The position numbers and the translations under genes are program-made. Below, in pieces: positions 37,969 to 55,435 of a stretch of 64,000 nt of DNA; the stretch's first letter is position 1, and every line of letters starts with the position of its first letter. The DNA comes from a virus, in the IMG/VR virus record IMGVR_UViG_3300044993_000765, positions 11,954-75,953 of that record. The stretch is one strand, 5' to 3'. The notes under the pieces are model-generated. The model was given only the letters and a program-made list of their open reading frames with translations, made no database searches and was not told where the DNA came from.

Positions 37969-39257
37969 TCACCAGTCAAAACCTCCTGAATTTCCATTTC
38001 TATTTCTGGAAATCAAAGCCTGTGGAGGCTTCGGAAACCTCGCCCCGATATCGTAAATCCGAGCCAGTGCGTCGAGCATGTCGTCGTGCAGCCCGGCCGG
38101 AAAAGTCAGGTATTCGGCATTGACGAACCGTTCCACCACATCGACCGGTGAGCCGTCCGACAACGTGCGCGGCAGCGCCTTCGGCAGCCACCAGCGCCCA
38201 TTCTCGAAATCCGGCTGTAACCGCTCTATCCGGTCCTCTTTCGCCATCTGCCCACCCAACGGCTCCAGGTCGAAGCGGTAGTTTTCCGCCTCCTGCACGC
38301 CATGGATGTGTTCGATGTCGCCGTCCTTGCCATATTTCTCGTATCCAGTCTTCAGCGGCTTCCACTTGCGGTGCAGGTAAATCAGCAGCGCAGCGCGCTC
38401 CTTGAGCGACAATCGATCGCGCACGGCTTCAAGCAGATAGTATCGGCCATCAGTGTTCAAGCCGATGACCACAAACGCGCTGTAGTCGCTGCGCTTGCCC
38501 TTGGAGCCGGCAGGGTCAACCAGCAGGTAGCGGTTCATCGGCCGCGCGATCTGGATCGGCAAGCTGTCGTAGTGGCGCAACCACTCTCGTTTGAAGAATC
38601 CACCCGTGCCAGCGACCGGCCGCTGCTGATACAACGCCTCCCAGTCCCTGCTCCCGCTGACGATTCGCTTTCGCTCCAGAGCTGCCTCGCTGAACCGTTC
38701 GGGACACAGAGCTTTCCCGGGCATACGACCCAACTGGTCGTTCTCCAGTGCCAGAGCCGGCAGCAGAATGACCTCCCAATCCTCCTGCGGGTGTTCGCGT
38801 AGCAACCAGCCGGCCAGGTCGTCCTCATGCCAACGGGTGTGCATGACGATCAGGATCGAGTCCTCCGCTAGTCTCGGATAGACGACGGAGGTGAACCAGG
38901 TCTTGGTCGACTCCCGCACCCGCTCTGACTCGGCTTCCTCGCGCGACTTGAACGGATCGTCGATGATGAAGACCTTGGACGGGAAACCGGTCGCGCCGCC
39001 GCGAATCGTCGTGCCGAGGTACAGACCGCCTTCGGTCGTCTTGAAGTAGGTCTTGGCGGTCGAGCTACCGTCCAGCCGCGACTCCGGAAACACCGCCGCA
39101 TGGACCGGCGACATCAGCGCATCTCGCACTGCTTGCCCGTTTTCCTCGGCGAGGTCGATCCCGTAGCTTGCGGCGATGATCGGCCAGTCCGGATGCTTCC
39201 CAAAAATCCACGGCGGCAACAGCTTCGACACGAGCCGGCTTTTGCCGTGCTGGGGCG
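37969..39257 (-). CDS. terL: Terminase large subunit, 3' part (interrupted gene)
   Basis: PQHGKS Walker A, IIDDP Walker B, MHTRWHEDDL, VDPA...SDYSA, HDDMLDAL. Confidence 0.93.
39251..39257. repeat. Satellite att core (left copy)
   Basis: tggggcg, identical to 55429..55435. Confidence 0.88.
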
Positions 39258-39321
39258 TCAACCACTATCTGCAAAAAAGTGATTGATTTTTTTGGTTTTT
39301 CTTATGAATCAATGGGATGCA

Positions 39322-39341
39322 TGCCCCCATTGTTGCCCCCA
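39322..39341. promoter_or_regulatory. Integrase arm-type sites (tgccccca x2, 12-bp period)
   Basis: The same pair with the same spacing occurs at 55289..55308. Confidence 0.75.
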
Positions 39342-39477
39342 GAGCCGGCCTTCTGCACCGGAATGTGGTGGGACTGCGCGGGACAAACGACGATCACGAC
39401 ACCCTGGCGGTTCATTACACACACGCCTTGCACGACAGCGCACGCGACTCAGCAACGCAACCCGCCAGCGGGTGCGC

Positions 39478-40053
39478 CTACTTCGGTTCGGCCGCGTCTC
39501 CCTGCTCGTAAAGCGACACCAAACCCTGCTCGCCGACGGCGTGCGTGCTGCACGGGAAATAGACCAGTTCGTCGATCACGTTCAACCACGCGCCGTTGAA
39601 TCGCTCGATCAGGTTGCGCTGCCAAGCATGCGGCATCGCCCAGATGTGTTTGCAGCGGGCCACGGCAACGTCATAGCTCGCATGCGGCTCGAAGTACACC
39701 AGGTACAGCGGCGTCACCTGTTCTGGTCCATAGCGGCGCTTCTGCATGCGATTGATCCAGTTCATCTCTTCATAGGCCCACACCAGACTGCTCGACACCG
39801 CCTTGCTTGCGACGTTGACGTAGTACGGCCGGGCGCGCGCAAATGCCAACATGTACACGACGGCCTCCGGTTCCGGCAGAGGTCGGCCGCGCAGGCTGTC
39901 CAGCGTCCAGGTGGTCGCCTCCGGCGCTGGGACTTCGGATCGCGCGGTCTCCGCCTCCAGCGTCGCCGGGGTGAGGCTTGCGAGATCAGCCGCCACCGCC
40001 GCCTCCACCACCTCCGCCGCCGCCACCCCCATCGCCGCCGCCATCGCCATCAC
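39478..40053 (-). CDS. Degenerate GIY-YIG (YhbQ-like) protein; start uncertain
   Basis: VYMLA...YYV and LVYFE.H....A.AR.K.I....AW...LIE..N..W. Confidence 0.5.
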   Translation of the reverse strand: MMAMAAAMGVAAAEVVEAAVAADLASLTPATLEAETARSEVPAPEATTWTLDSLRGRPLPEPEAVVYMLAFARARPYYVNVASKAVSSSLVWAYEEMNWINRMQKRRYGPEQVTPLYLVYFEPHASYDVAVARCKHIWAMPHAWQRNLIERFNGAWLNVIDELVYFPCSTHAVGEQGLVSLYEQGDAAEPK

Positions 40054-43000
40054 CCTGTGGTCCCGATGATGGTGTCAGCGTGCGCGGGCCGATCCGCATC
40101 ACCGGACCCTCGGTTTCCTGTCGCTCCTTTTTCGCCAGTTCTTCGGCCTGTATCTGCGCCAACACCTGTTCTCGCATCACCGTTGCAGCCTGCGCCATCG
40201 CTGAGGACTGCTCCAGCGAAGTGTGCAGCGCCTGCTGCGTATTGATCCCCGCACGGTGGCAGTAGTCGGTCGTCGGATCGCCCTGCACCGGAATCAGCGT
40301 GGCAGGCAAGCCGGGACCGGGCGCGCTTTGGGTGCTTACGCACAGACTGTCGATACGGGTGGCGAACTTGTCTTCGGCCAGGAACTGCGCCACCACGCCG
40401 GCCGCTAAGCGGCTTTTCTCCTCCTGCGTCAGCAGGCCCGCCGGCACCACGTCGCCGCGTTCGATCAGGCCCAACGCCTGCGTGTACATCGCATGCGCCG
40501 GGTGGCCGGGGTGCGTCATCAGCGTGGGCGCGGGCGACGCTTGTTCCGATGCTTGGGTGGGTTGCCGATCTTCTTCGCGTTCGTCGCGGGTCGCGGCGCG
40601 ATGGGCGAGCGCCGGATCGAGTGCCGTCGCGGTTTGCGGTGCGGTTTGCGCCTCGGCGCGCGCGGTATATTCGGGTTCGCGCTCGGGTGTGTCGTCGGTG
40701 CTGCGTGCCGTCGATGCGGACAGGCCCACGGTACGCGCTGCGGCGGCGGGCTCCGGTGTGTCCTGTGCTGGCGTCGAACGGTTTGGGCCGCTTGGTTCGC
40801 CACGTTCCCGCTCGCGTTGCGCCGCAAGCGCACGATCCACCGCGTCGCGCGTGTCCTGATCGGCGATGCCAGTCGCGGGGATGCCGTGCATCGTCTGGAA
40901 CTGGCGCACGGCGTGTTCGGTTTCCGGGCCGTACTGGCCGGTTTGTGGGATCTGCGTGCCGTCCGGTCCACGATAGCCTTGCCGGTCGAGGCGGTATTGC
41001 AACAGTTCGACATCATCGCTGCGGTCGCCCAGGCGTAGAACATCGGGATCGGATGTCGTGGGCGCGGGCGTCGTCGTTTCGATCTTCGCGGCGGTGCGCT
41101 CAGACTCTGGCAACGATTCGCGTTCTGGCGCGGCGGTCACGGTGGACGGTGGCGAGGGTTCGCGCGGTGTTTCGACTGCCGGCGACGCGGCGTGTCGATC
41201 GCTCGTCGCCGTTCGCACATCCGGTTCGGTGGTCGTCGTGTTCGGCTGCTGTGCGGATTCGCGTTCGCTCACAGGCGCGGTGGTGGGCGGGCTGCTGTCG
41301 TTCGCCTGCACACCGTTGGGCGGCGTTTGATCGCGCGCCGCGCGCTCAGCGTCGCGATGCTGTTCGATGTCCGCGCGTTCGCGCTCAATACGCGCGGCGT
41401 CATCGTCGCGTGCGTCGCGCGCCATCGTTGCGACGGCTGTCGCCGCCAGTGGAACATTCTGCGCCGTGGGCGTGTCCTGCACACGTTCGCGCTGCGGTGT
41501 GTTCTCCGGCGTTTCCTCGGTGGCGCGTGCTGCGTCGCCTGCCGGCGTCATCACGCGCGCCGATGCGCCCACGGCTGCCGCATCGACAGCTTGCTGCGCG
41601 TCTTCTTTCGACAACCCCTGTCGATTCGCCTCGCGCTGCGCCTGTTCGCGTGCGTCGCGTTCTTCGGGCGTCGCCTGCGTGATCGTGCGTTCCGGCACCG
41701 GCTGCGCATACGCGACGGCGTACTGCGTCGGCTGATCGGCGATGCCGGTCGCAGGCAAGTCGTGGGCCTGCTGAAATTTCGCGACCGCGTACACGGTGTC
41801 TTGGTCGTAGTGTCCATTTTGCGGAAGCGGCTGGCCGTCGATCCCACGATAGCCCTGTTGATCGAGACGGTATTGCAGCAACGCGACCTGATCGTTGCGG
41901 TCGCCGGGGTACGCGGTATCGGGATCGCGCGGGCCTGCCATCATCGCTTGGATCGCGGCGGTTTGCGCGGGGTTCTGTGTCGTGGGCACATCCTGCGCGC
42001 GCTCGCGTTGTGGTGCGTTCTCCAACGCCTGTTCGGGCGTGCGGATTGCATCCTCTGCTGGCGTGGTTCCGCGCGCCGGTGCGCCGATGGTGGCCGCATG
42101 GACGGCTTGCTGCGTGTCGTCGTTCGATAGTCCTTGCCGGTTCGCTTCGCGTTGCGCCTGCTCCGCAGCGTCGCGTTGCTCCGGCGTGGCGAACGCGATG
42201 GTCTGCTCGGGTGCTGCATGCGCGGGCGATGGCGCTTGCTGTTCATGCGATTTCAGTTCGCGCAACTCGGCCGCGATGTCGTTCGGCGTCGTGGTCGCCG
42301 CTGTCTCCACGTTCTTGCCGTCAGCGCCGCCAAAACGCGTATGACGAATCTCAATCTCGGCGATGGACTTCCCCGCCGTGTTCGGCTCAAGTTCAAGCGC
42401 ATTGACGCCCGCTATCAGCCCATGCTCGGCGCGCGTGCGTTGCACGGCAGCGTAGGCCGCCTCGAATTCCTCTGGTCGAACGTCGGGATTGCGGCCCGCA
42501 TCGACGTACAGGCGGCGCAATGCGGCGCGGTCGGCCTGTTCTGGCGTGGGCGGCGTCCAGTCGGGAATGCGCGCGAGTTCCTTCTCGTATCCCGGCATCG
42601 CCGAAAGCAAGCGTTCGCGCGTCAAGTCCAGTTCCAGCGCGCGCTGAGGGGGTGCCGGTTCGCCGCCGCGCATCCACGTCCCTTGCGCATCCCGTTCGTA
42701 AACACGTTCGTCGGAGGCTTGCAGTCGGTCGGTCGTCATGGCGCTGGTCACGGCCGCCGGCACCTCGCCGGCTTCGCCGTAGCCGTAGGCTTTGTGTCCC
42801 AACTGGTAGCGCATCGCGATGGCCGCCGGCCCCGCTTGAAGGTTCTCGTCTATCGTCTGGCGTGCTTGGGCATTCAACTGCGCGGTGCGCTCTGGACTGG
42901 CGTACTCCGGCTCCGCGTTCCACTCGGGGGCGCCTTCGCGATCCACGGTATCGGCCACTTGGCGCGACCAGCGTTCGCTTTCCACGTTGTAGGTCCAACG

Positions 43001-44308
43001 TCCTGTCTGCACATGCGCGGGGTCGCTCTCCGACACCGGCTGCACGAACGGGTTGCGCGGCGTCGGCACCTTGCCCAGCGCCTGTTCGGCCGCCTCCACC
43101 CCGGCCTGATAACTCAACTGCTGCGCTTTCTCGGGGGGCGCGCGATACCGCGCCGGTTGAAAGTCGCTGATCCCATCGTCCACTCGGTCGGCGCGCAAAT
43201 CTTCGCGAATCCAGTCCTTGCCGTTGTAGCCCCACGTCACGCCCGGTTCGTCGCGATCTTTCTGCGAATAAATCTTCTCGTTTTGCCAATGCGTGACGGC
43301 GCGATCAGCGGCTTCGGCCATGAGAAACGCATCGGCCGCCACCAACACCAGCGGACCCGTGCCCGTGGCGCCCACGGCGGCCGCCGTGAGCGTGCCGCCG
43401 CCCCAGCCCGCGACATTCCGTGCGCCGAAACGTGCCCACTGCTCGTTCGCGGCGGTCGCGTTGTCCTGCGCCCACAGTTCGCTGGTGCGTACCGTCGTTT
43501 GGTACGCATCGAGTCCCGTTGCCGCAATACCGCCCATGCGCAGGGCTTGGTTGGCGGAAAGATCGCCGACCAGAAATTCAGGCGAGATAAAACCGCGCTG
43601 GCCGCGTGGCACGCGGAACGCGCGCTCTGCCGCTTCGGCCCCTTGCTCGGTCAGCGTCAAGCGACCATTCTCCTGCGCGCTGTCCACCGCCTCCGACAAG
43701 CTCTGCAAGCCTCTCGCGGCATTGCCCTTGATGGTTTTCTTTCCGGGCTGGTCGATGGTCTCCAGGCTGGCGGTCAGATGCGATTCGGATTTCAGCACCG
43801 CCGGCCAACGCGCTTCGGGGCCGGTGAGTTTGCCGACCGCCTCGATCTCAAGCGCATGCGTGCGCTGGTATTCGGGGAGATTGCGAAAGAACGCCGCGTT
43901 CCTCGCGTTCGCGGCTTCGGGTGTCATGCCTTCCGGCGTGTTGGTCAGCAGATCGCCGTTGACCATTGCGAATTTGAGGGTGTCGCAGAGGTGGTTTACT
44001 CTTGCCGCTACCCGCTCGGCGGCGGCTCGATTTCCTGCGAGTGTGGCTTGACCATCCGGCGTTTCGGCCAGCTTTTCAAGTGCGTCTGTCAGTTTGTCAG
44101 AATACTCGCCCAGCGGTCCACCATTGTGAGGCGTGACGTCGAGTTTCAATGCTAATTGCCTGTCGGCAGGCAAGTTCAGCAGATTGCGGTCGCCATGTAA
44201 GTCAAACAGACCTCCTCGCGTGAGGTCTTGCAATAGCTTGCTTCTTTTATACGCATCTTGCTCAATGACGTGATGCCCTTGAAATACAGGCTGGTCGTGC
44301 TTAGCCAT
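39986..44308 (-). CDS. X-T4SS effector: N-terminal AHH (HNH-fold) nuclease, two peptidoglycan-binding domains, C-terminal XVIPCD-like domain
   Basis: FQGHHVI...NLLNLP...PHNGG; two V.LLQYRL..QGY...AV..FQ..H..P.TG.AD repeats; HPAHAMY...PVQGDP...TSLEQSS. Confidence 0.82.
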   Translation of the reverse strand: MAKHDQPVFQGHHVIEQDAYKRSKLLQDLTRGGLFDLHGDRNLLNLPADRQLALKLDVTPHNGGPLGEYSDKLTDALEKLAETPDGQATLAGNRAAAERVAARVNHLCDTLKFAMVNGDLLTNTPEGMTPEAANARNAAFFRNLPEYQRTHALEIEAVGKLTGPEARWPAVLKSESHLTASLETIDQPGKKTIKGNAARGLQSLSEAVDSAQENGRLTLTEQGAEAAERAFRVPRGQRGFISPEFLVGDLSANQALRMGGIAATGLDAYQTTVRTSELWAQDNATAANEQWARFGARNVAGWGGGTLTAAAVGATGTGPLVLVAADAFLMAEAADRAVTHWQNEKIYSQKDRDEPGVTWGYNGKDWIREDLRADRVDDGISDFQPARYRAPPEKAQQLSYQAGVEAAEQALGKVPTPRNPFVQPVSESDPAHVQTGRWTYNVESERWSRQVADTVDREGAPEWNAEPEYASPERTAQLNAQARQTIDENLQAGPAAIAMRYQLGHKAYGYGEAGEVPAAVTSAMTTDRLQASDERVYERDAQGTWMRGGEPAPPQRALELDLTRERLLSAMPGYEKELARIPDWTPPTPEQADRAALRRLYVDAGRNPDVRPEEFEAAYAAVQRTRAEHGLIAGVNALELEPNTAGKSIAEIEIRHTRFGGADGKNVETAATTTPNDIAAELRELKSHEQQAPSPAHAAPEQTIAFATPEQRDAAEQAQREANRQGLSNDDTQQAVHAATIGAPARGTTPAEDAIRTPEQALENAPQRERAQDVPTTQNPAQTAAIQAMMAGPRDPDTAYPGDRNDQVALLQYRLDQQGYRGIDGQPLPQNGHYDQDTVYAVAKFQQAHDLPATGIADQPTQYAVAYAQPVPERTITQATPEERDAREQAQREANRQGLSKEDAQQAVDAAAVGASARVMTPAGDAARATEETPENTPQRERVQDTPTAQNVPLAATAVATMARDARDDDAARIERERADIEQHRDAERAARDQTPPNGVQANDSSPPTTAPVSERESAQQPNTTTTEPDVRTATSDRHAASPAVETPREPSPPSTVTAAPERESLPESERTAAKIETTTPAPTTSDPDVLRLGDRSDDVELLQYRLDRQGYRGPDGTQIPQTGQYGPETEHAVRQFQTMHGIPATGIADQDTRDAVDRALAAQRERERGEPSGPNRSTPAQDTPEPAAAARTVGLSASTARSTDDTPEREPEYTARAEAQTAPQTATALDPALAHRAATRDEREEDRQPTQASEQASPAPTLMTHPGHPAHAMYTQALGLIERGDVVPAGLLTQEEKSRLAAGVVAQFLAEDKFATRIDSLCVSTQSAPGPGLPATLIPVQGDPTTDYCHRAGINTQQALHTSLEQSSAMAQAATVMREQVLAQIQAEELAKKERQETEGPVMRIGPRTLTPSSGPQGDGDGGGDGGGGGGGGGGGGGG
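41441..42190 (-). repeat. Internal ~78-aa duplication in the effector (about 41441..41674 and 41957..42190)
   Basis: ATPE.RDA.EQAQREANRQGLS..D.QQAV...PQRER.QD.PT.QN occurs twice. Confidence 0.85.
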
Positions 44309-44350
44309 GATGAAATTCTCCGATGAATAAGCAAAGGGCTATCGCAGCAA

Positions 44351-45004
44351 TCAGAAATCTGCTGCGTCTCTCCAGTGCAAGCCATCCGAGCTGGGCTTGA
44401 CCCCGATTCCTGCTTTACGGATTGCGTCGTACATGATCCGATCACAGATAACGGTGAGCGGTTTCTCTGCCATCCGAAACACATGGGCCGAACCAACGAC
44501 ATCTTTCTTAAATGCAAGCTTCGCGCCCCTCGTAAAATCTATAATTTCTACGTCTTTCCCTGTGCGAAAATCGTGTTCGATATCAACAAAAAACTCAGAG
44601 TTTTCCCTGTCCAGAGCAGATAGTTTTCGCACCACATCGCACAGGTAGAACTGTGGCCCTTGCGATCCATCAGGCAACACGTAGTCGCATGCGGCGAACT
44701 CAAACGCCTCCGGGTCAACGGATTCAAAGACGTTCTTCAATCGCTCTGACACGAGCCAGTAACCACCAAAATCCCCATCCAGATCATTCGGCGGCCTGTT
44801 CTTTCCTGGCCCAGTGCCATGAACTAGACGTGGCGTTTCCGGCAGGGGCGGAATGCCGCCTTCAGGTGGCCGAATGATGCGAGAGGGCGGCGTCAACAAT
44901 GCTTCTTCGTTTGCGAGAACGACATTGGATAGCGGCGAACTGCTGCGCGAATCTGGACGCAGCAAGTAGAACTGTCCTTTCTCGGACTTTTGCTTGGTGG
45001 TCAT
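44351..45004 (-). CDS. DUF1629/Imm11-family immunity protein
   Basis: WLVSERLKNVFESVDPEAFEF...YLCDVVRKLSALD; directly upstream of the AHH toxin. Confidence 0.78.
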   Translation of the reverse strand: MTTKQKSEKGQFYLLRPDSRSSSPLSNVVLANEEALLTPPSRIIRPPEGGIPPLPETPRLVHGTGPGKNRPPNDLDGDFGGYWLVSERLKNVFESVDPEAFEFAACDYVLPDGSQGPQFYLCDVVRKLSALDRENSEFFVDIEHDFRTGKDVEIIDFTRGAKLAFKKDVVGSAHVFRMAEKPLTVICDRIMYDAIRKAGIGVKPSSDGLHWRDAADF

Positions 45005-45519
45005 CGTGTCCTCACTGCTCATCAATGTGTCGGTGGTCATGCAGGTCAATCGTATCGATATTTACGTGAAGGCGTCAGCATCAGCAACATGCACGCGACG
45101 CTGGCACGGCTTCGCCATTGCGCATCCACGGCCCTTGCGTATCACGTTCGTAGTCGCGGTGGTCGGATGCGCGCAGTCGGTTGGTCGTGATGGCGGATCG
45201 CCTTTACGGCGCACGGCAACTGCTGGCGGATCGTGCAGCCGGTCGTTTCGATTCGGTCGCAGCCGCTGGTGCGGGGCGATGTCGTTGTTCTCCGTCATGG
45301 AGCATTCCTGTCCTGAGTCGTCCAAATTATGACAGCGGGTCCAGCCGGTGGCACACGGCCGGATTGGCGGGCGCGGTCGTCACAGCAGGTACAGCAACAG
45401 GGCGACCAGCCATTTGCAGACCCCGATCACAAGATCGTAGCGCCGCATTCTGCGTTGGTCTGCGCAATGCGCACCGTGCCTGCGCCGGGGGCGGCCAGGT
45501 GCCGACGTTGCGCGCGCAA

Positions 45520-45942
45520 TCAGGCCGCGTCCTCGATCACATACCCATGCGTATCCGCGATGCGACGTGAGTTCGCGTGGGGATCGGTACGTGCGATTTC
45601 CTCGCGTCGGATCACCAATCCAGACGGTGCGATCACTGCAATGCGGATCTGTCGCTGCCCGCCGCGCACCTTGCGCTTTGCGCTGGTCGCTTCTCCGACA
45701 ACGATCACCGCATCGCCGAGTTGCAAGGACTCGCCCGTGAGCAACCAGAGCAGGTAGAACGCGCTGCCGTTGGAAGTCGTCACCGGCCGCAGCGCGTCGC
45801 CTTCATCGGCGACCAGGACATCCAGTGGCGCGGCGACGGCGACAAGCACGCACGACCCGCGACGATCGCGCACGGTCAACCTCACGTCGTCACCGATGCG
45901 CAGGCTTTCGCCCGTCCTTCGATTCAGTACCAACCGGCCCAT
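45520..45942 (-). CDS. Single-chain tandem CsrA/RsmA-like protein
   Basis: LVLNRRTGESLRIGDDV...QIRIAVIAPSGLVIRREEI; homolog of 24053..24499. Confidence 0.8.
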   Translation of the reverse strand: MGRLVLNRRTGESLRIGDDVRLTVRDRRGSCVLVAVAAPLDVLVADEGDALRPVTTSNGSAFYLLWLLTGESLQLGDAVIVVGEATSAKRKVRGGQRQIRIAVIAPSGLVIRREEIARTDPHANSRRIADTHGYVIEDAA

Positions 45943-45943
45943 G

Positions 45944-46315
45944 TCATCCCTTCCTTTGGTAGCGCGACAGGCGCGCGCCCTGGGTACGCGCGATTTGCAT
46001 CGCTTCAGGTGCCTCTATCTCGAACTGCGCATCGCGCATCGCACGCGCGGTGCCTGCGTGTTCTCGCGCATCGCTGATGCGTACGCGCACCGGGCCAATC
46101 TCGAACGCATCACCGTCGAACAGGGCGAGGACGTGCGCGCGCCAACCGAATCCGCACGGCGCACTGGCGCGGAAGCCGTCCACGTCGCCCAGTGCGTTGT
46201 CCTGATGGGCCTCGATGTAGACGTACCAGGTGCCATCGACCCACCCGGTCAGATTCAAGCGGATGTGGTCGCCAAAACTGACGATTTCGCCGATGGCGAC
46301 GTGCAGCACGCGCAT
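45944..46315 (-). CDS. Highly degenerate tandem CsrA-like protein
   Basis: VLHVAIGEIVSFGDHIRL...FEIGPVRV...FEIEAP. Confidence 0.6.
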   Translation of the reverse strand: MRVLHVAIGEIVSFGDHIRLNLTGWVDGTWYVYIEAHQDNALGDVDGFRASAPCGFGWRAHVLALFDGDAFEIGPVRVRISDAREHAGTARAMRDAQFEIEAPEAMQIARTQGARLSRYQRKG

Positions 46316-46761
46316 CAGCGATGCCCCGAGAAAGTACCGGCCTCGCCCAGCGTCCCGCCCAAGGGGGCGCGCGGCAACGCGGAGGAGGCCGGCAGGGAAA
46401 CCGGGGCGAACCTGTCCCGGAGCGATGAGCCGATAACCCGATCCGCCACGGCGGACGCGATGCCAAGGTGAACCGCGTCATCGCAGCCGCGTGCATGTGG
46501 CACCACGTCGCCGGGCAACCAGACCTGCAAGGCCAGATGCCCCAGTCGGAAGCGGCGCACGGCCAGCAGTGAGAAGACATAGCCCCAGGTGCCGTCCGCG
46601 CGGCGTAGCGGCTCCAGGCGCGCGCCGTCCAGCCACAGGCAGATGCCGGCTGCCGCGCTCACAGACAGCGCCACACGGGGACCGATGCGAGCCTGGACGA
46701 CGATCCGGCTTCCTTCACCAACCCGGACGGGTTGGCCAACACGGCACGTCATCACCTCCAC
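46315..46761 (-). CDS. Degenerate tandem CsrA-like protein
   Basis: AGGAGG SD before GTG; VMTC.VG..V.VG and Y.FSL..VRRFR...WLPGDVV..A..C.D.VH.GIA shared with 24493..24903. Confidence 0.7.
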   Translation of the reverse strand: MEVMTCRVGQPVRVGEGSRIVVQARIGPRVALSVSAAAGICLWLDGARLEPLRRADGTWGYVFSLLAVRRFRLGHLALQVWLPGDVVPHARGCDDAVHLGIASAVADRVIGSSLRDRFAPVSLPASSALPRAPLGGTLGEAGTFSGHR

Positions 46762-46894
46762 GGGACACCTCCTGTGTGGCCGGACGAGGAGGCCGGCGGC
46801 AGGCGCATCGTTACCGGCGTTAACGCTGGTGTCAATAGGATGAATTTCTGATGTAGGCTTACACCATCCCCGTTCAGCCCGGAACCTGCCCCCC

Positions 46895-47551
46895 ATGAAC
46901 AAGTATTCCCAAGCCTTCCACGACGCCATGAAACGCACCGGCCTGCGTAACGTCGTGATCGCCGCGCACGTCGGGAAAGTCGGCAACAACTGTGTTGCGC
47001 AGTGGCGTTCGGGGCGTCGCCCCATCCCCGCCGAACACGCGCCCAAGGTCGCCGGCCTCCTCGGCATCCTTCCCGAGCAGATCAGCGAGTCCTACGATCG
47101 ACTGGTGAAGGCGGGTGCTCTGCTGCCGGATGCGGTGCCCGGCCGAAATGCGCCGCCGTACGGCCATATCGTGCTGTCGGAACTGGAGGATTTCAGCCGA
47201 GAAGCCGAACAGCCGCGCATCTGGCTCCCGGAGTCGATCACCAAGCGCAAGCTGGGCCTGACGCGGCCCGCCGACGTGCGCTGGGCGCTGCAACCGTCGC
47301 TGTCGATGGCCCCGGACATCGAGCGGCAGGCGCTGGTGCTGATCGACATCACCGCGCAGCGGCACGAGGACGTGGTGGACGGTGGCCTGTACGCCTACGC
47401 GCTATGGGGCAGGCCGGACATCCGGCGCATCCTGGTCCGCCGCGATGCCTGGACGCTGGTGGGGACCAACCCGGAAGTGGAACGGGTGACGGTGACTGAG
47501 GAAGAATTGCCGGAGCTTCGCGTGTTCGGCAGCGTGATCGGCTGGATTTGA
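46895..47551 (+). CDS. XRE HTH regulator with S24-like domain lacking the catalytic Lys
   Basis: QWRSGRRPIPAEHAP; RWALQP...LID...LWGR.D.RRI...GW shared with 25071..25721. Confidence 0.82.
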   Translation: MNKYSQAFHDAMKRTGLRNVVIAAHVGKVGNNCVAQWRSGRRPIPAEHAPKVAGLLGILPEQISESYDRLVKAGALLPDAVPGRNAPPYGHIVLSELEDFSREAEQPRIWLPESITKRKLGLTRPADVRWALQPSLSMAPDIERQALVLIDITAQRHEDVVDGGLYAYALWGRPDIRRILVRRDAWTLVGTNPEVERVTVTEEELPELRVFGSVIGWI

Positions 47552-47654
47552 CGGGCGGGATCGGGCCTAGAATGGCATGACGCCAGCGCGGCGATCGGCA
47601 CACCCTGTCGGATCAGACAGGGGCGGCGACAACACAGGGAACAGGGAGCGGAAT

Positions 47655-49202
47655 GTGGGCAAGACCTGGGGCAGGTATCTCGCGAAGGGCATCGTCATCG
47701 CCGTGGTGTACGGCGTCGCCTATCTGGCGCTGCGCTACATCTCGTTCAACCAGTGGTTCCTGCCGGCGGGGTTGCGCGCGGCATGCCTGCTGTTCCTGCC
47801 GTATCGGTATTGGCCCTTCCTCTTTCTTGGGGAAGCGGGACTCACGCTGTCCAAGAAGATCGAGATGATCGATGTCTATGGTGCAGCATGGGTCTACCTT
47901 AGTCCGTTGCTCATGCCGCCGATGGTCTCGGCGCTTCCATTTCTGGTCAGAAGGAAGCTGGGAACCGGTGATCGGTTGATGCGATGGCTGCCATTGCCCG
48001 CAGCCCTGATGGCCATTTGGTCTTCGACTTGCAATTTCGCGGTGAATCGTCTTCTTGACGGTCCAAATCATCCAGAAGACTTGAAGGCATTCTTGGGGTT
48101 TGTCATTGGCGACTACCTCGGGATTCTCACCGCGCTGATGATCGTTTTTTTGTTTCGATCCCTGCGAAGAGAGCGCCATGTCTCATTTGGCTTCATCCGT
48201 GACTCCGTGATTTCCGCTGCACTGATCGGATTCGCCTACGTCTGGATCGAGCACTTTCTAGCCGAGGACGATTTTCTCCGTCTTGCGTTGCTCATGACGA
48301 TGACGATTCCCATCGTACTACTGACCTTTTTCCACGGTTGGAGAGGAGCCGCTGTTGGCTCATTACTGGCGAGTCTTGGAGTCGCCCAGGCGATGACCTA
48401 TACCGGAATCCAGAACTCAAACAATGACTTGGTTCTCTACGCTCAGATGGGCCTTGTAGTAACGTCTGCCATGTTGCTTCTGCTGGGCGGGCAGATCACT
48501 CGACACTATGAAAGCGCCAAAGCGTCAGGTTTCGCGCAACAGGAAGCACTGAAGCTCGCACGCATGCAGTTGCTGTCCAATGAGCCTGCGGTGCGTGACC
48601 AACTCATCATCATGGCGAGCATGCAGGTGCAGATGGACGACGCCCGCGACCTGCTCGCCAAGGATCTGCACGCCAACGGCAAGGCACGCGAGGCGATGGA
48701 GTTGAACCGCCGCGGCGTCGAGCATCGGCAACTGTTCGAGGTGCAGTCGCTGGTGGTCTATCCCATCGGCATCGAGCGCGACGGCTTGTTCGGCGTGCTC
48801 GACACCGCCGCCTTCCGCGAGTCGCGCGCCAGCGGCGTGGCGGTCGAGTTCGCCTTCGGCCGCATCGACCCGCGCACGCTGTCGGAAGACTTGCAGGTGT
48901 CGGCCTACCGTTGCCTGTGCCACGCCATCGATCACCTGTCGGACTGGGAGCCGGCCCGCTACCGCCTGCGCCTGCGGGTCTGGCATGGTCGCGCCCGGCG
49001 TGGACTCTACCTGTCGGTCGCCATCGACACCGAGTACGCTCGCCACGTCACGCCGCACGGCGAGAGCGCCCTGCTGCTGCTGGAGGCACGGGTCAAGGTC
49101 CACGGCGGGCTGCTGCGCCGTACGCCGCACGGCATTCGCCTGCTTCTGTCGGAGCCGGCCGGGGAGCCTGCCGCCTTCCAGCCGCTGCCCCACACGGAGT
49201 AA
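47655..49202 (+). CDS. MASE1-domain membrane sensor with degenerate kinase-like region
   Basis: SFNQWFLPAGLR...YWPFL, FHGWRGA; homolog of 25825..27381. Confidence 0.82.
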   Translation: MGKTWGRYLAKGIVIAVVYGVAYLALRYISFNQWFLPAGLRAACLLFLPYRYWPFLFLGEAGLTLSKKIEMIDVYGAAWVYLSPLLMPPMVSALPFLVRRKLGTGDRLMRWLPLPAALMAIWSSTCNFAVNRLLDGPNHPEDLKAFLGFVIGDYLGILTALMIVFLFRSLRRERHVSFGFIRDSVISAALIGFAYVWIEHFLAEDDFLRLALLMTMTIPIVLLTFFHGWRGAAVGSLLASLGVAQAMTYTGIQNSNNDLVLYAQMGLVVTSAMLLLLGGQITRHYESAKASGFAQQEALKLARMQLLSNEPAVRDQLIIMASMQVQMDDARDLLAKDLHANGKAREAMELNRRGVEHRQLFEVQSLVVYPIGIERDGLFGVLDTAAFRESRASGVAVEFAFGRIDPRTLSEDLQVSAYRCLCHAIDHLSDWEPARYRLRLRVWHGRARRGLYLSVAIDTEYARHVTPHGESALLLLEARVKVHGGLLRRTPHGIRLLLSEPAGEPAAFQPLPHTE

Positions 49203-49238
49203 GCCCGGACGCCCTCGCGGGCTTCCGGGCCGCCGTCC

Positions 49239-49691
49239 TCACTCCGCCGCGCCCAGGGTGCGGATGAGCCAACGGGTCACGCTGCCGTCCTGGTAGCGCA
49301 CCACTTCCACGTCGGTGCCGCGATACAGCACGCTGGGCACGCCCGCCGGCACGGCATCGCCGGGCACGGCCACACGGTCGGCGTCGGTGCCGATCGGCAT
49401 GATCCAGGCGGTGCCGCCGATGCGCCCGGCTGCCGCGCGCACGGTGCCGGCGGAATCGTTGATCTGCACGTAGCGCACGCCGTCGCGCTGGAACTCGTAG
49501 ATCTGCCAGGCGGGATCGGCGGCAAGATCGACGGCGGCCGGGAAGGACTCGCCGAGTCCACTTGAGGCCGCTTGGCTCCAGTGCCCATCGGCGGGGCAAC
49601 CGCATTTCGCCCAGGCGCTCGGCGTGAAGAATAGTGCGCAGGCCAGCAGGGCGAGCGGCGCGCAGGCGGAACGGGAAAGATACATCGACAT
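49239..49691 (-). CDS. Small secreted protein, KCGCPxDG family
   Basis: Sec signal ending AWA; homolog of 27370..27819. Confidence 0.8.
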   Translation of the reverse strand: MSMYLSRSACAPLALLACALFFTPSAWAKCGCPADGHWSQAASSGLGESFPAAVDLAADPAWQIYEFQRDGVRYVQINDSAGTVRAAAGRIGGTAWIMPIGTDADRVAVPGDAVPAGVPSVLYRGTDVEVVRYQDGSVTRWLIRTLGAAE

Positions 49692-50189
49692 GATGAAACT
49701 CCTTTGGTCTTGGTCCGTGTTGAGGTGCTAACGGCGCGACGGTTCCCCCGGCCTGCCGTTAACGATGGATGGCCCGCTTGGCGTCTTCGCAGCGGGCATC
49801 TTGACGGTACCACCCCTATTCGCGTCCCGGCCCGTGCCGGCCGCACTGCGCCGCAGGCGGCATCGCCGGGGTTCGCGAGCAGCATCCGGATCGCACGCTG
49901 GCGCGCTTCGTGCGCCGTCCTGAGCGGTGGCTCCCCCCGTTCCTGCGGCCTTCTGGCCGTGTGGTGCGGGTGGTGCGGCGGCCGATGGATGCCATGCCCA
50001 CGCTGCGGAACTGCAGGGGACGACGTGGCCGCTGGGGGTGTGCGCCGCGATGCGCGTTCGCCGGAAAGGTTCTGGCCCATTCTGGCCGTTGGCTTCAGGT
50101 GGGCGTGCCGCCCCCGCGCGCGCGCGCGGAACGATTGGTTTTCCGCCCCTTCTGGGCGCGATCCTGACGCCCTCGCGCGCGCGGAACGG

Positions 50190-50717
50190 TCAGGTTGCCG
50201 CTGATCGCGGGCGTATGCGGGTGCGCTTGGGACGCGGTGCATGCGGTTTCGGGATCGCACGCCCGGCCTTGCGATGCCAGCACCACGGGCAGGCAGTAAC
50301 GGTCGCAGGCGCGTTCGGCCACAACAGGACCGGTCCGCAGCCGGCACATTCGACGACGCGCGTCCAGCCTGCGGGCACGCGCCCCGCCGCCATGTGCTGC
50401 GACCTCGCCAGCGCGCGCAGGAGCGCCGACAGCGCCTGCCGCGACAGTCCTTTGCAGGCGCGCAGATCGCGCATCGACAGCGCCGCCACGGTCGCTCCCG
50501 CCAAGCCTTCGTCGATCAGCAGATCGAACAGGGTCCGCAGCGTGTCGCCCTCGGCGGACGCCAGCAGCGCGACCAGTTCGGGCTTGTGGTCAGCGATACG
50601 CTGCTGGAACGATGACGGGATCGAGCCGCGTGTGGGTTCCAGGCGCAGTCGGTCACCGTGGGCGTACACCCGAATGCCGGCATCGTGCAGTTCGGCCATC
50701 GTGCGAACCGGCGTCAT
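50190..50717 (-). CDS. Satellite hypothetical protein with C-terminal CxxC...CxxC zinc ribbon
   Basis: GIRVYAHGDRLRL...HKPELVALL; CAGCG, CPWC. Confidence 0.6.
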   Translation of the reverse strand: MTPVRTMAELHDAGIRVYAHGDRLRLEPTRGSIPSSFQQRIADHKPELVALLASAEGDTLRTLFDLLIDEGLAGATVAALSMRDLRACKGLSRQALSALLRALARSQHMAAGRVPAGWTRVVECAGCGPVLLWPNAPATVTACPWCWHRKAGRAIPKPHAPRPKRTRIRPRSAAT

Positions 50718-50758
50718 AGGCCGCTCGCCTGTCGTCGGAACTGTTCGCCGCGACCGCC

Positions 50759-50983
50759 CGAAGGTAGCGAAGGTTGCGAAGATGGCGGCTGCACGGAGTT
50801 CGTATCTTCGGTGGTTTCGGCCCCCGAACCGCCACCTTCGGGGTGTTGCGACCCGCTCGGGGTCTGTTTCGTCATCGCCGTCATAACTCGACGACCGCTC
50901 CGGCGACCTCGCCAAGATGGCGGTCGGATGCCGAAGATTGCGAACAGGAATTTTCGCCATCTTCGCGACCTTCGCGATCTTCG
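50759..50983. repeat. Iteron-like 9-bp repeats, putative satellite replication origin
   Basis: cgaaggtag-cgaaggttg-cgaagatgg and inverted ccatcttcg-cgaccttcg-cgatcttcg at the 3' end of the helicase gene. Confidence 0.65.
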
Positions 50984-52722
50984 ACGGGCCGCCCACTGCC
51001 TTCGGCCAGTCGCCACAGCCAGCCGCCGAGCATGCCCCGCTTGACCGCGACCGCGCCGATCTTCCGCTTGGCCCGGTGCATGGCGTCCCTGGAGTAGCCC
51101 GCCGCGCTGGCTTCGGCGAACACGTCCTTTGCCGGACGCTCTCCCGCACGCAACAGATCGCGCAGGAAGCCGGCCGCGTCTTGACCCGCCCCATCGTCGC
51201 GGGATTCGGCCTCTGCCAACACCGCGCGCGCGGTACCCTCGATGACCTCGCCCCAGGCGACATAGGACGCGATCACGCCGGGATGCTCCGGCAGCGGGGC
51301 TTGTTGCAGGTCGTAGGCGAAGCCGCCACCATCCGGGCCGAGGTTGGATTTCGCGCGCAGCAGCACGTTGCGGGCGGGACGATCCTCGTCCGCCTCCTGT
51401 CGCGCCGCCACCAGGACAATGCGCGCCAGCGCGCCGAACGCCAGCGAGCCGGTGATGCGTTCCAGCGGATCACGCCCACTGGTGCCCTTGGAGAAGTGAG
51501 TGATGCCCACCACCGCGCAGCCGTGTTCGTCGGCCATATCCACCAGCGGCTGCAAACCGCGCCGGACCTCGGCGTTCTTGTGCGAGTCGCCGGCCACCGC
51601 CGACGACAGCGGATCGACCACGATCAGGCGCACGTCGGGGATGGCCTGCAAGCCATCGCGCAACAAGTCCATGTCGCGCGCGGGATCGAACGGATATGTC
51701 TCGCCCCGGTCGATCACGCGCTCGACGACGTGAATCCGGTCCATGTCCGCGCCGGCCGCGTGCAGGCGGGGACTGAGCGTGTCCTTGTGGCCATCCTCGC
51801 CCGACCAGATCACCACCGAACCGACGCGCGCGCGGCTGCCGTCCGGCCAACGGCCGCCACGGGTGACGATCGCCGCCAGCCCCGCCGCAAGCGTGGTTTT
51901 CCCCGTGCCGGGTACACCGCCGACCAGGTGCAACTTGCCAGCTGCCAGCCAGCCCGGCCACAGCCAGTCCACCGGCACCGGCTCCAGGTCGCTGCCGCGT
52001 CGCAGGATCACGCGCGGGCCGTCGTCGCGTCGTGGCGACGCCGATGTGACAGGCGTGAGCGAATTGCGCGTGGACGTGCCCTCGCGTGGTGTCGGCGGCA
52101 TGATGCGTGCGAGTGCCCACACGTCGTTGGCGTTGGCGTCGGGATGCTGCGTCAGCCAATCGACGCAATCGCCCTTCGCCGGGAGGTTCAGCGCCGCCAC
52201 GTCGATCCATTCCACCGATGCGGCGATGCCGCGCAGCTTGGCGGTGACGGTTTCGACATAGCGCCGGCCCGCCGCGTCGTTGTCGCCCCAGCAGAGGACG
52301 TGGCGCCCGCGCAGCGGCGACCAGTCGGCGGCATCGGCACTATCCGCGCTACCGCTGGTGACGGCGATCAGGTCGATCCGCGACAGCGCATCCACCTTGT
52401 TCTCGCCCTCCACCACCATCACCCAATCGCTGTCCTCCAGGGCTTGCAGATCTGCAAGCCCATACAGCAGTTTCCCGCTGGGAGGCGAGGAAGGTTCGCC
52501 GATCACGAACGCATGGCCGTTCCAGTGCATCGGCCGAATCCATTTCTCGCCGTTCGGATGCTTCGCGCGCAGTCGCCAGAACTGCACTTGGCCGCCAGCA
52601 TCGTAGTAATGGTGGAGCGCGGCCGGCACGAAGCCATCGGCGATAGCGGACGCGGCCAGTCGGCGCGCGGCCTGTGCGGGTGTTTCGTGGGCTGTGGCCG
52701 GGGGATCAGGTGCGCCGGCCAT
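50881..52722 (-). CDS. Toprim primase plus AAA_25/RepA-type helicase
   Basis: VVEGENKVDAL, WGDNDAAG, GVPGTGKT, IVVDP, GITHFSK. Confidence 0.9.
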   Translation of the reverse strand: MAGAPDPPATAHETPAQAARRLAASAIADGFVPAALHHYYDAGGQVQFWRLRAKHPNGEKWIRPMHWNGHAFVIGEPSSPPSGKLLYGLADLQALEDSDWVMVVEGENKVDALSRIDLIAVTSGSADSADAADWSPLRGRHVLCWGDNDAAGRRYVETVTAKLRGIAASVEWIDVAALNLPAKGDCVDWLTQHPDANANDVWALARIMPPTPREGTSTRNSLTPVTSASPRRDDGPRVILRRGSDLEPVPVDWLWPGWLAAGKLHLVGGVPGTGKTTLAAGLAAIVTRGGRWPDGSRARVGSVVIWSGEDGHKDTLSPRLHAAGADMDRIHVVERVIDRGETYPFDPARDMDLLRDGLQAIPDVRLIVVDPLSSAVAGDSHKNAEVRRGLQPLVDMADEHGCAVVGITHFSKGTSGRDPLERITGSLAFGALARIVLVAARQEADEDRPARNVLLRAKSNLGPDGGGFAYDLQQAPLPEHPGVIASYVAWGEVIEGTARAVLAEAESRDDGAGQDAAGFLRDLLRAGERPAKDVFAEASAAGYSRDAMHRAKRKIGAVAVKRGMLGGWLWRLAEGSGRPVEDREGREDGENSCSQSSASDRHLGEVAGAVVEL

Positions 52723-53122
52723 ACGCGCCTCCTACCAGGTCGCGCACGGCCTCAATGAACGGCCGGTCGATCAGACGCATGTGGAACGACACCAGATCGC
52801 CGTGGCCGCAGCCCGTGAAACAGCGCCAGTGCCCGCGCTCGCCGTCCAGACGCACCGACAGCGACGCATTGCGATCCTCGTGGAAGGGGCAACGCCCCTG
52901 CGCCCAGCCGTTGCCGTGGCGCGCGCCGAGCTTCGCCACGCGGGCGCGGTAGTAGGTCTCGGGGTCGGGGAGGCGGGTGCGCCAGTTCCGAGGGAGGCGC
53001 GGCGCTTGCACCGCACGGCGCGCGACGGTAGCGTGACGCCTGCGGTCGCTCTCTCCAAGCGCCTCCGTGTCCTCTGAACCCCCGCGCCCGCCAGCGCGGG
53101 GGTTCTTCATTGTGGCGGTCAT
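52706..53122 (-). CDS. Stand-alone CHC2 zinc-finger (primase ZBD) protein
   Basis: CPFHEDRNASL...WRCFTGCGHGD. Confidence 0.85.
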   Translation of the reverse strand: MTATMKNPRAGGRGGSEDTEALGESDRRRHATVARRAVQAPRLPRNWRTRLPDPETYYRARVAKLGARHGNGWAQGRCPFHEDRNASLSVRLDGERGHWRCFTGCGHGDLVSFHMRLIDRPFIEAVRDLVGGAYGRRT

Positions 53123-53349
53123 GCGCGCGCGCCTTGGTCGCGGACGGCGATGCGCTGGGTAATCCATGCGTCGATTTCGGCCGTGGACCACGCGCTGGTG
53201 CGCGAGCCGAGTTTCACGGGCGCGGGGAAAACGCCCAGGGCGATGCGGCGGTAAATCTCCGAACCCGACAGGCCGGTGCGGGCTTTGACGGATGGCAGGC
53301 GTTCGAGGGTGAGCGCGCCCGTTGCGGGCGTGGTGGGTGTGCGGGTCAT
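53119..53349 (-). CDS. alpA: AlpA-family regulator/excisionase
   Basis: RLPSVKARTGLSGSEIYRRI..G.FPAPVKLG...AW...EIDAWI. Confidence 0.9.
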   Translation of the reverse strand: MTRTPTTPATGALTLERLPSVKARTGLSGSEIYRRIALGVFPAPVKLGSRTSAWSTAEIDAWITQRIAVRDQGARA

Positions 53350-53550
53350 GGTCGGTCTCTGCAATGGGCCTGCGCCGGTCGGAACAGGTGGGGAACGTGT
53401 CGGGGAAACACCGCTGTCCGGCGCACAGGCACGCGGACGGCCGAACGCGCGACACGGACGCGCCTCGGATCAGGAAAAAACGGGGCAGTCGGCCAGCAGG
53501 CCAGAAGGCGCGTCAGGCGCGTCAGGCGCGCGGAGCATCGGGCAGACAAC

Positions 53551-53578
53551 AAAACGGGCCGCCTTTCGGCCGCCCGTT
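53551..53578 (-). terminator. Putative intrinsic terminator
   Basis: Imperfect aacgggccgcc-tttc-ggccgcccgtt hairpin with a T-run on the minus strand. Confidence 0.5.
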
Positions 53579-53655
53579 AGATCGAACACCGCCTCAGTCG
53601 CGCCACCGAACAAGCAACCGCGCCACGCTCAAAACGTGGCGCGAATGGCATGCGG

Positions 53656-53940
53656 TCAGCAGGGCATCACGCACCACCCGCAGCCGGTGGCCTCACGCAA
53701 GGCGCGCGCCGTCTCCAATGCGAACTCGCACAGGTAGGCCGTGCTGCCCTCGGTGCCGGTGTCGATCGCGCTGGCAAGAACGCGACGCACCGCATCCTCC
53801 AGGTCGGCCGCCTCACGGCGGGCGGTCGTCACCTCCACCCCGGCCAGCACCGCCAGCAGCGGGCGGCCCTCGTTCGGAATCTCCCGAAATTCGGTGCCGG
53901 TGGTGGTCGTGCGGGCCTCTGTTACGCTGGTTGTAGCCAT
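53656..53940 (-). CDS. DUF3077-like small protein
   Basis: LLAVLAGV....A...A..L pattern; GAGGA SD. Confidence 0.5.
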   Translation of the reverse strand: MATTSVTEARTTTTGTEFREIPNEGRPLLAVLAGVEVTTARREAADLEDAVRRVLASAIDTGTEGSTAYLCEFALETARALREATGCGWCVMPC

Positions 53941-54009
53941 GATCGTTCCTCTCTTGAACGGTGGTGGTCAGGGCGGCCGGGGTGTGACAGCACCCCGGTC
54001 ACCCGCTTG

Positions 54010-55257: not shown

Positions 55258-55288
55258 TGGGGGCAACTCTCCTGCGAATCGGTGCGCT

Positions 55289-55428: not shown

Positions 55429-55435
55429 TGGGGCG
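55429..55435. repeat. Satellite att core (right copy)
   Basis: tggggcg. Confidence 0.88.

Follow-up and report, generated by a model that had tools for sequence, protein, structure and literature searches.

Do regulatory genes that travel beside a toxin on a mobile element control that toxin, or are they simply its neighbours? The question is raised by a 64,000-nucleotide stretch of viral DNA, which we refer to as the window (~65% GC). The window is part of a 75,953-bp IMG/VR provirus record (IMGVR_UViG_3300044993_000765, positions 11,954 to 75,953). Its prophage contains a 16.2-kb satellite-like integrative element (39262-55427), inserted in the Walker A motif of terL, and ~60% of that element is a gene cassette that we call cassette B (39986-49691). 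Cassette B encodes a toxin, the immunity protein Imm11, three CsrA-like proteins, a divergently transcribed XRE-family repressor and MASE1 membrane protein, and a convergent small secreted protein, KCG. The gene map was made by open reading frame (ORF) calling with a GC3 filter and Pfam; PHROGs provided the prophage context. A first-pass annotation had proposed this gene content, order and orientation, and the same share of the satellite. ORFs, Pfam and tblastn place all of the genes where it had put them. Of its labels, AHH (for the toxin) and three CsrA-like genes are correctly positioned; AHH and the middle CsrA-like gene fall below their family thresholds. We consider the chances evenly balanced that cassette B is an allele of a mobile Lysobacterales regulatory module that works by the mechanism proposed below.

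The core is widespread and keeps its order. Briefly, one to three CsrA-like genes point leftward, XRE and MASE1 point rightward, and KCG converges on MASE1. By tblastn mapping, this arrangement recurs at ~50 genome loci and on seven viral contigs (individual loci are denoted L001, L002 and so on). A profile scan of one genome per species identified 74 loci, and a scan of IMG/VR identified 14. Relatives of MASE1 number ~70 at the 90% cluster level; all with a taxon name belong to Lysobacteraceae or Xanthomonas. In these searches, the module was found only in Lysobacterales. Some genomes carry multiple copies, with three in Lysobacter sp. ACE_PRO74 and three in bacterium 2PB. Among cultivable carriers is Lysobacter brunescens CCUG 55585 (L041). 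The five-gene core also occurs free of cargo. In L011, L019, L033, L043, L067, L069 and L072 it adjoins tRNA-Cys and tRNA-Gly, followed by pgsA. On its other side, L011, L019, L067 and L072 have tRNA-Leu(taa); these are four of the eight loci in the tRNA-Leu group described below. Since a cargo-free core can sit between tRNA genes, as counted in 7-8 genomes, we read the core as a self-standing module and toxins as its frequent, optional cargo. In appearance, the cargo-free core resembles a minimal island at a tRNA cluster.

The window holds a second copy, cassette A, in the phage itself (19729-27819; tblastn and Pfam). The minus strand encodes an 832-aa effector of the bacteria-killing type IV secretion system of Xanthomonadales (X-Tfe and X-T4SS, respectively; 19729-22227), an ankyrin protein (22224-23147), a DUF2059 protein (23258-23860), two CsrA-like proteins (24053-24529 and 24493-24936) and KCG (27370-27819). 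The plus strand encodes XRE (25071-25721) and MASE1 (25825-27381). Each core gene of cassette B has this one further copy in the window, at 24053-27819. Identity between A and B proteins, by tblastn, is 43% for XRE, 37% for MASE1, 63% for KCG and 37-42% for the CsrA-like proteins. The phage toxin resembles toxin B only in the XVIPCD domain (41%). With core identity of merely 37-63%, the two cassettes are not a recent duplication, which upholds the earlier description of homologous, diverged copies. Both cassettes have close kin elsewhere. In a sister phage, L078, cassette A occupies the same position, with 90% identity across 11.3 kb, and L003 carries the same cassette B from Imm11 onward.

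Where might the core be controlled? In cassette B, a 133-bp divergent control region (46762..46894) lies between the CsrA-like genes and XRE. The palindrome ACCGGCGTTAACGCTGGT (46813-46830) exactly occupies the spacer of the leftward promoter, which has a perfect TTGACA (minus strand, 46835-46830) on one side and AACGAT, a -10-like hexamer, on the other. A protein bound at ACCGGCGTTAACGCTGGT would block RNA polymerase. Part of this signal is repeated at the other end of the core. The 8-mer CGTTAACG occurs only twice in the 64 kb: at 46818, in the control region, and at 49757, 66 bp upstream of KCG-B. The latter copy falls in the KCG promoter region (49727..49764), which also has GTTAGC at 49727. 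Cassette A has a palindrome of its own (24979-25008), unlike that of B. Its core motif, CCATTGGTT, is found only at 24980 and 27903, the latter 84 bp upstream of KCG-A. Neither cassette contains the motif of the other. This exclusivity within the window points to separate cis sites for the two cassettes. The helix-turn-helix (HTH) parts of the repressors are 42% identical and the palindromes differ; hence, we expect XRE-A and XRE-B to have separate DNA targets.

A shorter motif is common to many loci. In the window, GTTARC is rare, with six matches on both strands (at four places) compared to 19 +/- 6 in shuffles. The two promoter regions of cassette B account for three of these four places. 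Among 58 loci, GTTA[AG]C occurs at 4.4 per kb in the Csr-XRE region and 6.9 per kb upstream of KCG, against 0.17 per kb in all locus DNA. This corresponds to 26-40 times enrichment in both promoter regions, and the motif is upstream of KCG in 40 of the 58 loci. TGTCAA, the -35 element on the Csr strand, is present in 45 of the 58 Csr-XRE regions and in two of the 58 KCG upstream regions (0.15 per kb in all locus DNA). We dropped the idea of strictly private operators; the longest shared k-mers are near chance and the GTTAGC-type motif belongs to many loci. Instead, we read the cis element as one motif shared across the family, with variants particular to each allele. Because KCG and the divergent promoter share this element, they are probably one regulon.

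The candidate for binding these sites is the XRE-family repressor (46895..47551, plus strand). Pfam recognises an HTH and, weakly, a C-terminal S24-like domain (21.7 bits in XRE-B, below the cut-off). We aligned 24 XRE sequences (alignment A2). The position of the Ser nucleophile of LexA and CI is mostly Ala, with Ser in copy B. The position of the Lys general base falls in a conserved Arg pair, of which R177 is invariant and R178 nearly so; copy B has Arg. Loss of the Ser-Lys dyad across the family makes RecA-stimulated self-cleavage unlikely. At many loci, the XRE ATG is preceded by a -10-like hexamer at a distance of 7-10 nt. Such spacing suggests that the mRNA lacks a leader, like that of lambda cI.

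Such a repressor could instead be part of a life-cycle switch. XRE would then be a CI-type immunity repressor and MASE1 an induction sensor, together controlling excision, replication or lysis. The HTH and S24-like architecture, the divergent promoter, the leaderless-like start and carriage by phage, satellite and loci like integrative and conjugative elements (ICEs) are all consistent with this. However, the missing catalytic dyad leaves no SOS-type induction, and a different repressor gene (60118-60534) adjoins the phage integrase (61792-62880; PHROGs). Furthermore, the module occurs alone between tRNAs and at conserved sites in chromosomes, where integrase and replication genes are missing. 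B's motif is also absent from the integrase and primase regions of the satellite. A scan of the window for GTTARC similarly found none near either gene and none in cassette A. The first-pass annotation had raised a link to satellite excision and terL restoration; the motif scan and a search for contigs with the empty site revealed no link between the module and satellite excision or terL repair. We consider a life-cycle switch improbable.

The second product of the rightward operon is a membrane protein with a C-terminal DHp and CA-like domain (47577..49202, plus strand). Pfam scores for MASE1 are 60.8 bits in copy B and 82.2 bits in copy A (cut-off 29.8). The true start of MASE1-B is likely 47655, giving a 515-aa form. 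In the AlphaFold model (pLDDT 81), ten membrane helices lead into a helical hairpin and an alpha/beta domain. The top Foldseek matches are the cytoplasmic domains of DesK (the best), HK853 and YycG (E ~1e-4, prob 1.0), and NCBIfam UhpB matches the MASE1 part. A search of PDB with the family profile returned no kinase, only designed repeat proteins that we take to be spurious. An alignment of 19 diverse members (A1) has no invariant or near-invariant His, Asn or DxGxG over the last 220 residues. Since the modelled histidine-kinase fold has no conserved His, Asn or G-box, the protein looks like a MASE1-anchored pseudokinase.

Does the pseudokinase work with the repressor? Identity in the S24-like domain of XRE best tracks identity in the MASE1 cytoplasmic domain (rho 0.71, 56 loci). 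Genetic linkage alone could produce part of such correlations. A predicted complex between XRE and the MASE1 cytoplasmic domain scored 0.00, and is evidence neither way. The membrane segment behaves differently. Among the relatives of B (L001-L008 and L077), residues ~126-320 (window 47950-48540) are 32-53% identical, whereas XRE, the N- and C-terminal flanks of MASE1, and KCG are 61-96% identical in the same set. DNA homology to these relatives drops out in the segment. This points to recombination or diversifying selection in the input segment. The pattern fits a sensor with a diversifying input part and an output part matched to the repressor.

Hypervariability in a membrane segment could also indicate a system for phage defence or exclusion. 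The membrane sensor would detect infection or attack and the CsrA-like proteins would halt translation, in a manner akin to abortive infection. Carriage on prophages and satellites, in multiple copies per genome, is consistent with this suggestion. However, no PADLOC family matches any of the nine module proteins at E <= 0.01, and the neighbours are interbacterial toxins or housekeeping genes rather than defence islands. We regard a defence role as very improbable and continue with the core as a regulatory module.

KCG (49239..49691, minus strand) has a Sec signal peptide, and the mature protein begins KCGCP. A CGC motif, frequent in the family and not invariant, is followed by a ~100-aa beta domain modelled with confidence (pLDDT 79). 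No PDB entry matches the fold above noise (best Z 4.8), the ESM Atlas returned only unnamed clusters and Pfam returned no match at E <= 0.1. For want of a Pfam match, we rejected KCG as a DUF4189/Tpf homologue. The family comprises 140 clusters; all named members are from Lysobacterales and are labelled "hypothetical" or "secreted". KCG is the most conserved part of the core.

The leftward operon encodes the CsrA-like proteins, which fall into three types (alignment A4). The profile of this alignment matches CsrA structures in two separate stretches (E 1e-13). The proteins are 123-158 aa long and contain two repeats; hence, they depart from the ~60-aa homodimer of CsrA/RsmA. In cassette B, the distal gene B1 (45520..45942, minus strand) encodes a type 1 single-chain tandem, with Pfam CsrA matches in two stretches (46.7 bits) and a sub-threshold NCBIfam csrA match. 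Repeat 1 of B1 retains the beta1 motif L-x-L-x-RR-x-GE and repeat 2 retains AP...REEI. The middle gene, B2 (45944..46315, minus strand), is degenerate (Pfam CsrA 13.9 bits, below threshold). It belongs to type 3, the extra gene of three-gene cassettes, and has orthologues in L003, L009, L018, L049, L079-L081 and L086. The proximal gene, B3 (46315..46761, minus strand), is type 2. It has no Pfam match, and is homologous to the phage gene at 24493-24936 (42%, E 2e-23, tblastn), which matches CsrA weakly. Scores of the phage proteins are 62.5 bits for A1, above the gathering score, and 22 bits for A2, below it.

Type 1 proteins have RR in repeat 1 only and REEI in repeat 2 only. With one motif per repeat, no more than a single intact RNA-binding face is predicted. 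Type 2 tandem proteins (46315-46761, 24493-24936 and those of other loci) have lost both RNA-binding motifs, RR and REEI. They share the signature TCR.G ... WLPGD ... DC.D..H, and its conserved Cys and His residues may coordinate a metal. We found no published tandem single-chain CsrA in the literature.

These observations suggest how the module might operate. The proposal builds on what can be read from the sequences: conservation as a unit, loss of catalytic residues, geometry of promoter and palindrome, a shared motif and turnover of cargo. It has four parts: the divergent control region, a rightward operon that encodes the non-cleavable CI/LexA-like repressor together with the MASE1 membrane pseudokinase, a leftward operon for one to three single-chain tandem CsrA-like proteins, and the convergent KCG gene, with the same cis motif in its promoter. 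XRE would bind GTTARC-type sites and repress both the CsrA-like operon and KCG. The pseudokinase would sense a membrane or periplasmic cue and relieve repression by protein contact, rather than by phosphotransfer or RecA-type cleavage. The CsrA-like proteins, probably with one RNA-binding face, would be the primary output. Their targets may be mRNAs of neighbouring cargo, the host CsrA regulon (including the X-T4SS in Xanthomonas), or both. Cargo of the satellite, the AHH-like X-Tfe and Imm11, would depend on the host X-T4SS for delivery. CsrA represses the X-T4SS virB operon, and no CsrA-titrating small RNAs are known in Xanthomonas, nor any CsrA antagonist in the order (PMC7777525). This makes an output through the CsrA regulon attractive.

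A bolder version can be drawn. Across Lysobacterales, pseudokinase and non-cleavable repressor would form mobile "sense-and-fire" modules controlling one-faced CsrA mimics. Through these mimics, the CsrA regulon of the host would be reset, with the X-T4SS or type VI secretion system de-repressed, for instance, at the time when the neighbouring toxin and immunity genes are expressed. The moment at which host weapons fire effectors encoded by phages, satellites and ICEs would thus be set by those elements, and nested alleles with separate cis sites would act independently. We think this extended picture rather unlikely.

What, then, does the core accompany? A catalogue of cargo, as proposed in the first-pass annotation, was compiled for 52 loci with a readable flank, using crude gene calls, clustering and Pfam to assign the first co-oriented cargo. 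A polymorphic toxin is in this place at 21 of 52 loci: Rhs toxins at ten, X-Tfes at ten and a Tc-like protein (SpvB / TcdB_midN / FG-GAP) at one. One further locus has a pair of unknown 715-aa and 301-aa proteins, and five have other cargo. At the rest, the neighbours are a trpG-trpD-trpC block (seven loci), tRNA-Leu and then a GltB-like gene (eight), Usp and MgtC (four) or cysNC on the opposite strand (six).

The toxins themselves vary. Rhs cores are 40-87% identical and their tips, after DPxGL, are unrelated (e.g. L001, L002, L006, L017, L023, L025, L050). The L002 tip bears an AAHH motif, the putative toxin type of the satellite X-Tfe at its N-terminus. X-Tfe cargo is of at least four types, including a Tle1-like lipase type (L004, L077) and the phage toxin type (L045, L078). 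In L049, also one of the X-Tfe loci, virD4 directly follows the CsrA-like gene. Turnover is clearest among the closest relatives of cassette B. Thus, L001, L002, L004, L006 and L077 have XRE 78-96% and KCG 78-88% identical to those of B. For these closest relatives, DNA homology is confined to 46742-~49840: the promoter region, XRE, MASE1 and KCG. Left of 46742, they bear other CsrA-like sets and Rhs or Tle1-like toxins.

Three loci have giant proteins of ~3100 aa beside KCG (L049:12135-21497, L081:7782-17069 and L086:3901-13254). That of L081 has AAA_34 and Strawberry-notch-type helicase domains with LPD39; those of L049 and L086 are likened to it by size and position only. The three loci look like ICEs.

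The first-pass annotation described a fixed core and an exchangeable toxin slot. This stands in so far as the core is conserved and the cargo differs, even where XRE is 78-96% identical. It does not stand as a toxin-specific arrangement, given the 25 of 52 loci with housekeeping or tRNA neighbours. The data support a fixed core with an exchangeable toxin slot for the copies on mobile elements.

Cassette B illustrates such a slot. Its toxin is an interbacterial X-Tfe of 1440 aa (39986..44308, minus strand). An AHH-like N-terminus is followed by a repeated middle with two PG_binding_1 stretches (101.8 bits), a C-terminal XVIPCD (PF20410; residues 1266-1373, 42.4 bits, cut-off 24.9) and a Gly tail. 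The AHH match, at 18.4 bits, is below the cut-off of 22.3, and the motif is GHH rather than AHH. Residues 1-260 have no sequence match in PDB. The middle region is similar, at the DNA level, to X-Tfes of L004, L049 and L079. Imm11 (44351..45049, minus strand; Pfam 208.7 bits) is 43 bp upstream of the toxin and is also found in L003, at the contig end. As in polymorphic toxin systems generally, we take an Imm11 neighbour to fit a toxin of the nuclease type. Imm11 and the first toxin codons form a low-GC block (47-57% GC over ~44100-45050). The gap that separates Imm11 from the CsrA-like genes holds a relic of the middle region of another X-Tfe (45087..45197, minus strand; 37 codons, 65% identical to toxin residues 522-558 by tblastn), conserved in L003. 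The relic mirrors the orphan-tip pattern of Rhs and CdiA loci on the N-terminal side; it is upstream because the variable domain of an X-Tfe is N-terminal. The same gap contains GTGCCA-17-CATAAT, which resembles a promoter, and then CAGGACAGGAAUG directly ahead of an ATG (45296..45354, minus strand). The hexamers are at 45354-45326 and the motif is invariant in L003. The site is possibly a separate start point, with a CsrA-type GGA site, for the cargo transcript.

Several results weigh against control of cargo by the core, or against parts of the proposed mechanism. The CsrA-like genes end 190-470 bp short of the cargo at every locus measured, namely both window cassettes, L001, L030, L045 and L049. 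Given these gaps, and the promoter-like site in that of cassette B, co-transcription of CsrA-like genes with cargo is conjectural. Cargo toxins may be transcribed independently or be linked to the core only in trans. Counts of GGA, the CsrA site, in cargo leaders have no consistent pattern across loci. At 25 of the 52 loci, as noted above, the core adjoins trp genes, tRNA-Leu, Usp/MgtC or opposite-strand cysNC and not toxins. Early-branching Xanthomonas loci consist of MASE1 and KCG, with neither XRE nor CsrA-like genes; these are in X. translucens, X. albilineans (four loci) and relatives. KCG identity co-varies with neither sensor nor repressor (rho 0.10-0.17, 56 loci), which argues against KCG as a cassette-specific ligand. 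A systematic test for locus-specific 7-mers common to the two promoter regions gave a marginal result (p 0.054, for AT-rich 7-mers). Finally, the transcriptional and binding steps are ones that we infer from DNA and protein sequence.

Another interpretation of the gaps is that toxin and immunity genes are an independent moron, with their own promoter, and share only recombination-prone slots with the module. The module would then regulate other things, such as host physiology via the CsrA-like proteins. Half of the loci have no toxin, and the foreign GC content of the Imm11 block is also consistent with an independent moron. However, toxins of three delivery classes are found directly downstream, in the same orientation, in at least five diverged core subfamilies. 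Toxin genes make up, by estimate, less than 1% of a genome. Hence, their recurrence next to the core is far above expectation on that estimate. In L049, the gene that follows the CsrA-like gene is virD4 itself. We consider the moron explanation doubtful, and prefer the core as a regulatory module whose cargo often, and optionally, includes toxins.

What carries cassette B? Prophage genes assigned by PHROGs include those for the major head protein (28627-29577), portal (34531-36648), terS (55597-56196) and an endolysin. The prophage terL is interrupted. Its N-terminal part (55416-55610, minus strand; 64 codons) ends ...FFAPP and then runs into foreign codons, HQSH and a stop. The C-terminal part restarts at 39261 with PQHGKS and matches phrog_38 from position 312. 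The intervening 16.2 kb encode a tyrosine integrase (54010-55419, minus strand) and primase/helicase genes (50881-52722 and 52706-53455, both minus strand), according to PHROGs. It is reasonable to call this insert a satellite-like integrative element. CGCCCCA is common to both terL junctions (39262-39300 and 55416-55440), and a 9-bp direct repeat, GTGATTGAT, is nearby at 39279 and 55421. Recombination at CGCCCCA would restore the terL frame; recombination at GTGATTGAT would not.

No empty terL site was seen in contigs aligned over 38000-56500, only the occupied site. All but one of the contig joints in this region have 20-29-nt sides, and we read them as noise. We read the exception likewise: a 49-nt joint at 54159-54514, within the integrase region, where 357 other letters lie between the sides and indicate a replacement. 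Satellite integrase and primase genes were not found beside other core copies, bar one integrase-like fragment (40% identical) that adjoins KCG in L003. As these backbone genes were not found there, we conclude that the cassette travels on different backbones. An Rfam scan of the entire window found no match. Matching sequencing runs were hot-spring and microbial-mat metagenomes, with no RNA run among those listed. Two further frames were recorded. A 191-codon ORF (39478-40053, minus strand) overlaps the Gly-rich 3' end of the toxin gene by 68 nt and probably starts later; it has no Pfam, PHROG or PADLOC match and no homologue beside other core copies. At the left end of the window, the crude gene caller picked out an open frame of 2561 codons (2-7684, minus strand).

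We class cassette B with the accessory modules that mobile elements carry beside polymorphic toxins, in this case probably under the control of a repressor. The component families are known; the combination, and several of the component forms, are undescribed. In the open literature, we found no paper that combines MASE1 and XRE with CsrA and either XVIPCD or Rhs, nor one on XVIPCD effectors encoded by prophages. Regulation of X-T4SS and Rhs toxins is poorly understood in Lysobacter, Stenotrophomonas and Xanthomonas. The module, carried by phages, satellites and chromosomes, adjoins toxins of three delivery classes and is a testable candidate switch for these weapons or for the host CsrA regulon. 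Our findings also suggest that T4SS effectors can travel as cargo of phages and satellites. A single-chain CsrA, a repressor with a dead S24 domain and a MASE1 pseudokinase would interest researchers in signalling and RNA regulation more broadly.

How does the locus compare with known systems? The element is like P4-like satellites in having a tyrosine integrase, a primase/helicase, no capsid genes, a size of ~16 kb and residence in a helper-type prophage. It differs in its insertion site, the Walker A codons of the helper terL rather than a tRNA, and in devoting 60% of its length to the cassette. Furthermore, no capsid-redirecting genes were identified in the element and its helper dependence is putative. 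KCG is similar to Tpf/DUF4189, the X-T4SS protection factor (bioRxiv 10.64898/2026.05.09.723464), only in being small, periplasmic, Cys-containing and from Lysobacterales.

Among regulators, lambda CI and LexA have the same N-terminal XRE HTH and C-terminal S24-like domain, with a divergent promoter, a palindrome and possibly a leaderless mRNA. Here, by contrast, the Ser-Lys dyad is lost and the gene is predicted to be co-transcribed with a membrane pseudokinase. The latter recalls UhpB (MASE1 and HisKA_3) and DesK, since a membrane domain, MASE1 in the case of UhpB, precedes a DHp and CA fold. However, the phospho-accepting His and the N and G boxes are missing, the module has no response-regulator gene, and the partner is an XRE repressor. 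The CsrA-like proteins share beta1 and beta5/REEI motifs with CsrA/RsmA. They are carried on mobile elements, as are some paralogues in other genera (the Pseudomonas Rsm survey, PMC7366521; Legionella csrR/csrT-type, PMC4471563). They differ as single chains of two repeats with the motifs split, and two further subtypes are degenerate.

The toxin cargo resembles known X-Tfe/X-Tfi pairs, reviewed in PMC6536674, with XVIPCD-VirD4 recognition described in PMC8740702. Common features are a C-terminal XVIPCD, peptidoglycan-binding domains, an N-terminal toxin domain and an adjacent immunity gene. However, the genes described here are on a prophage and on a satellite-like element within it, a conserved sensor, repressor and CsrA-like module precedes them, and the immunity protein is Imm11. 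Rhs and CdiA loci with displaced orphan modules offer a final comparison. They, too, combine a conserved delivery scaffold with exchangeable tips, and have relics of older toxins beside the current one. In the X-Tfe, by contrast, the toxin domain is N-terminal and the relic is upstream rather than downstream. The neighbour shared among loci is here a regulatory module, not a secretion gene.

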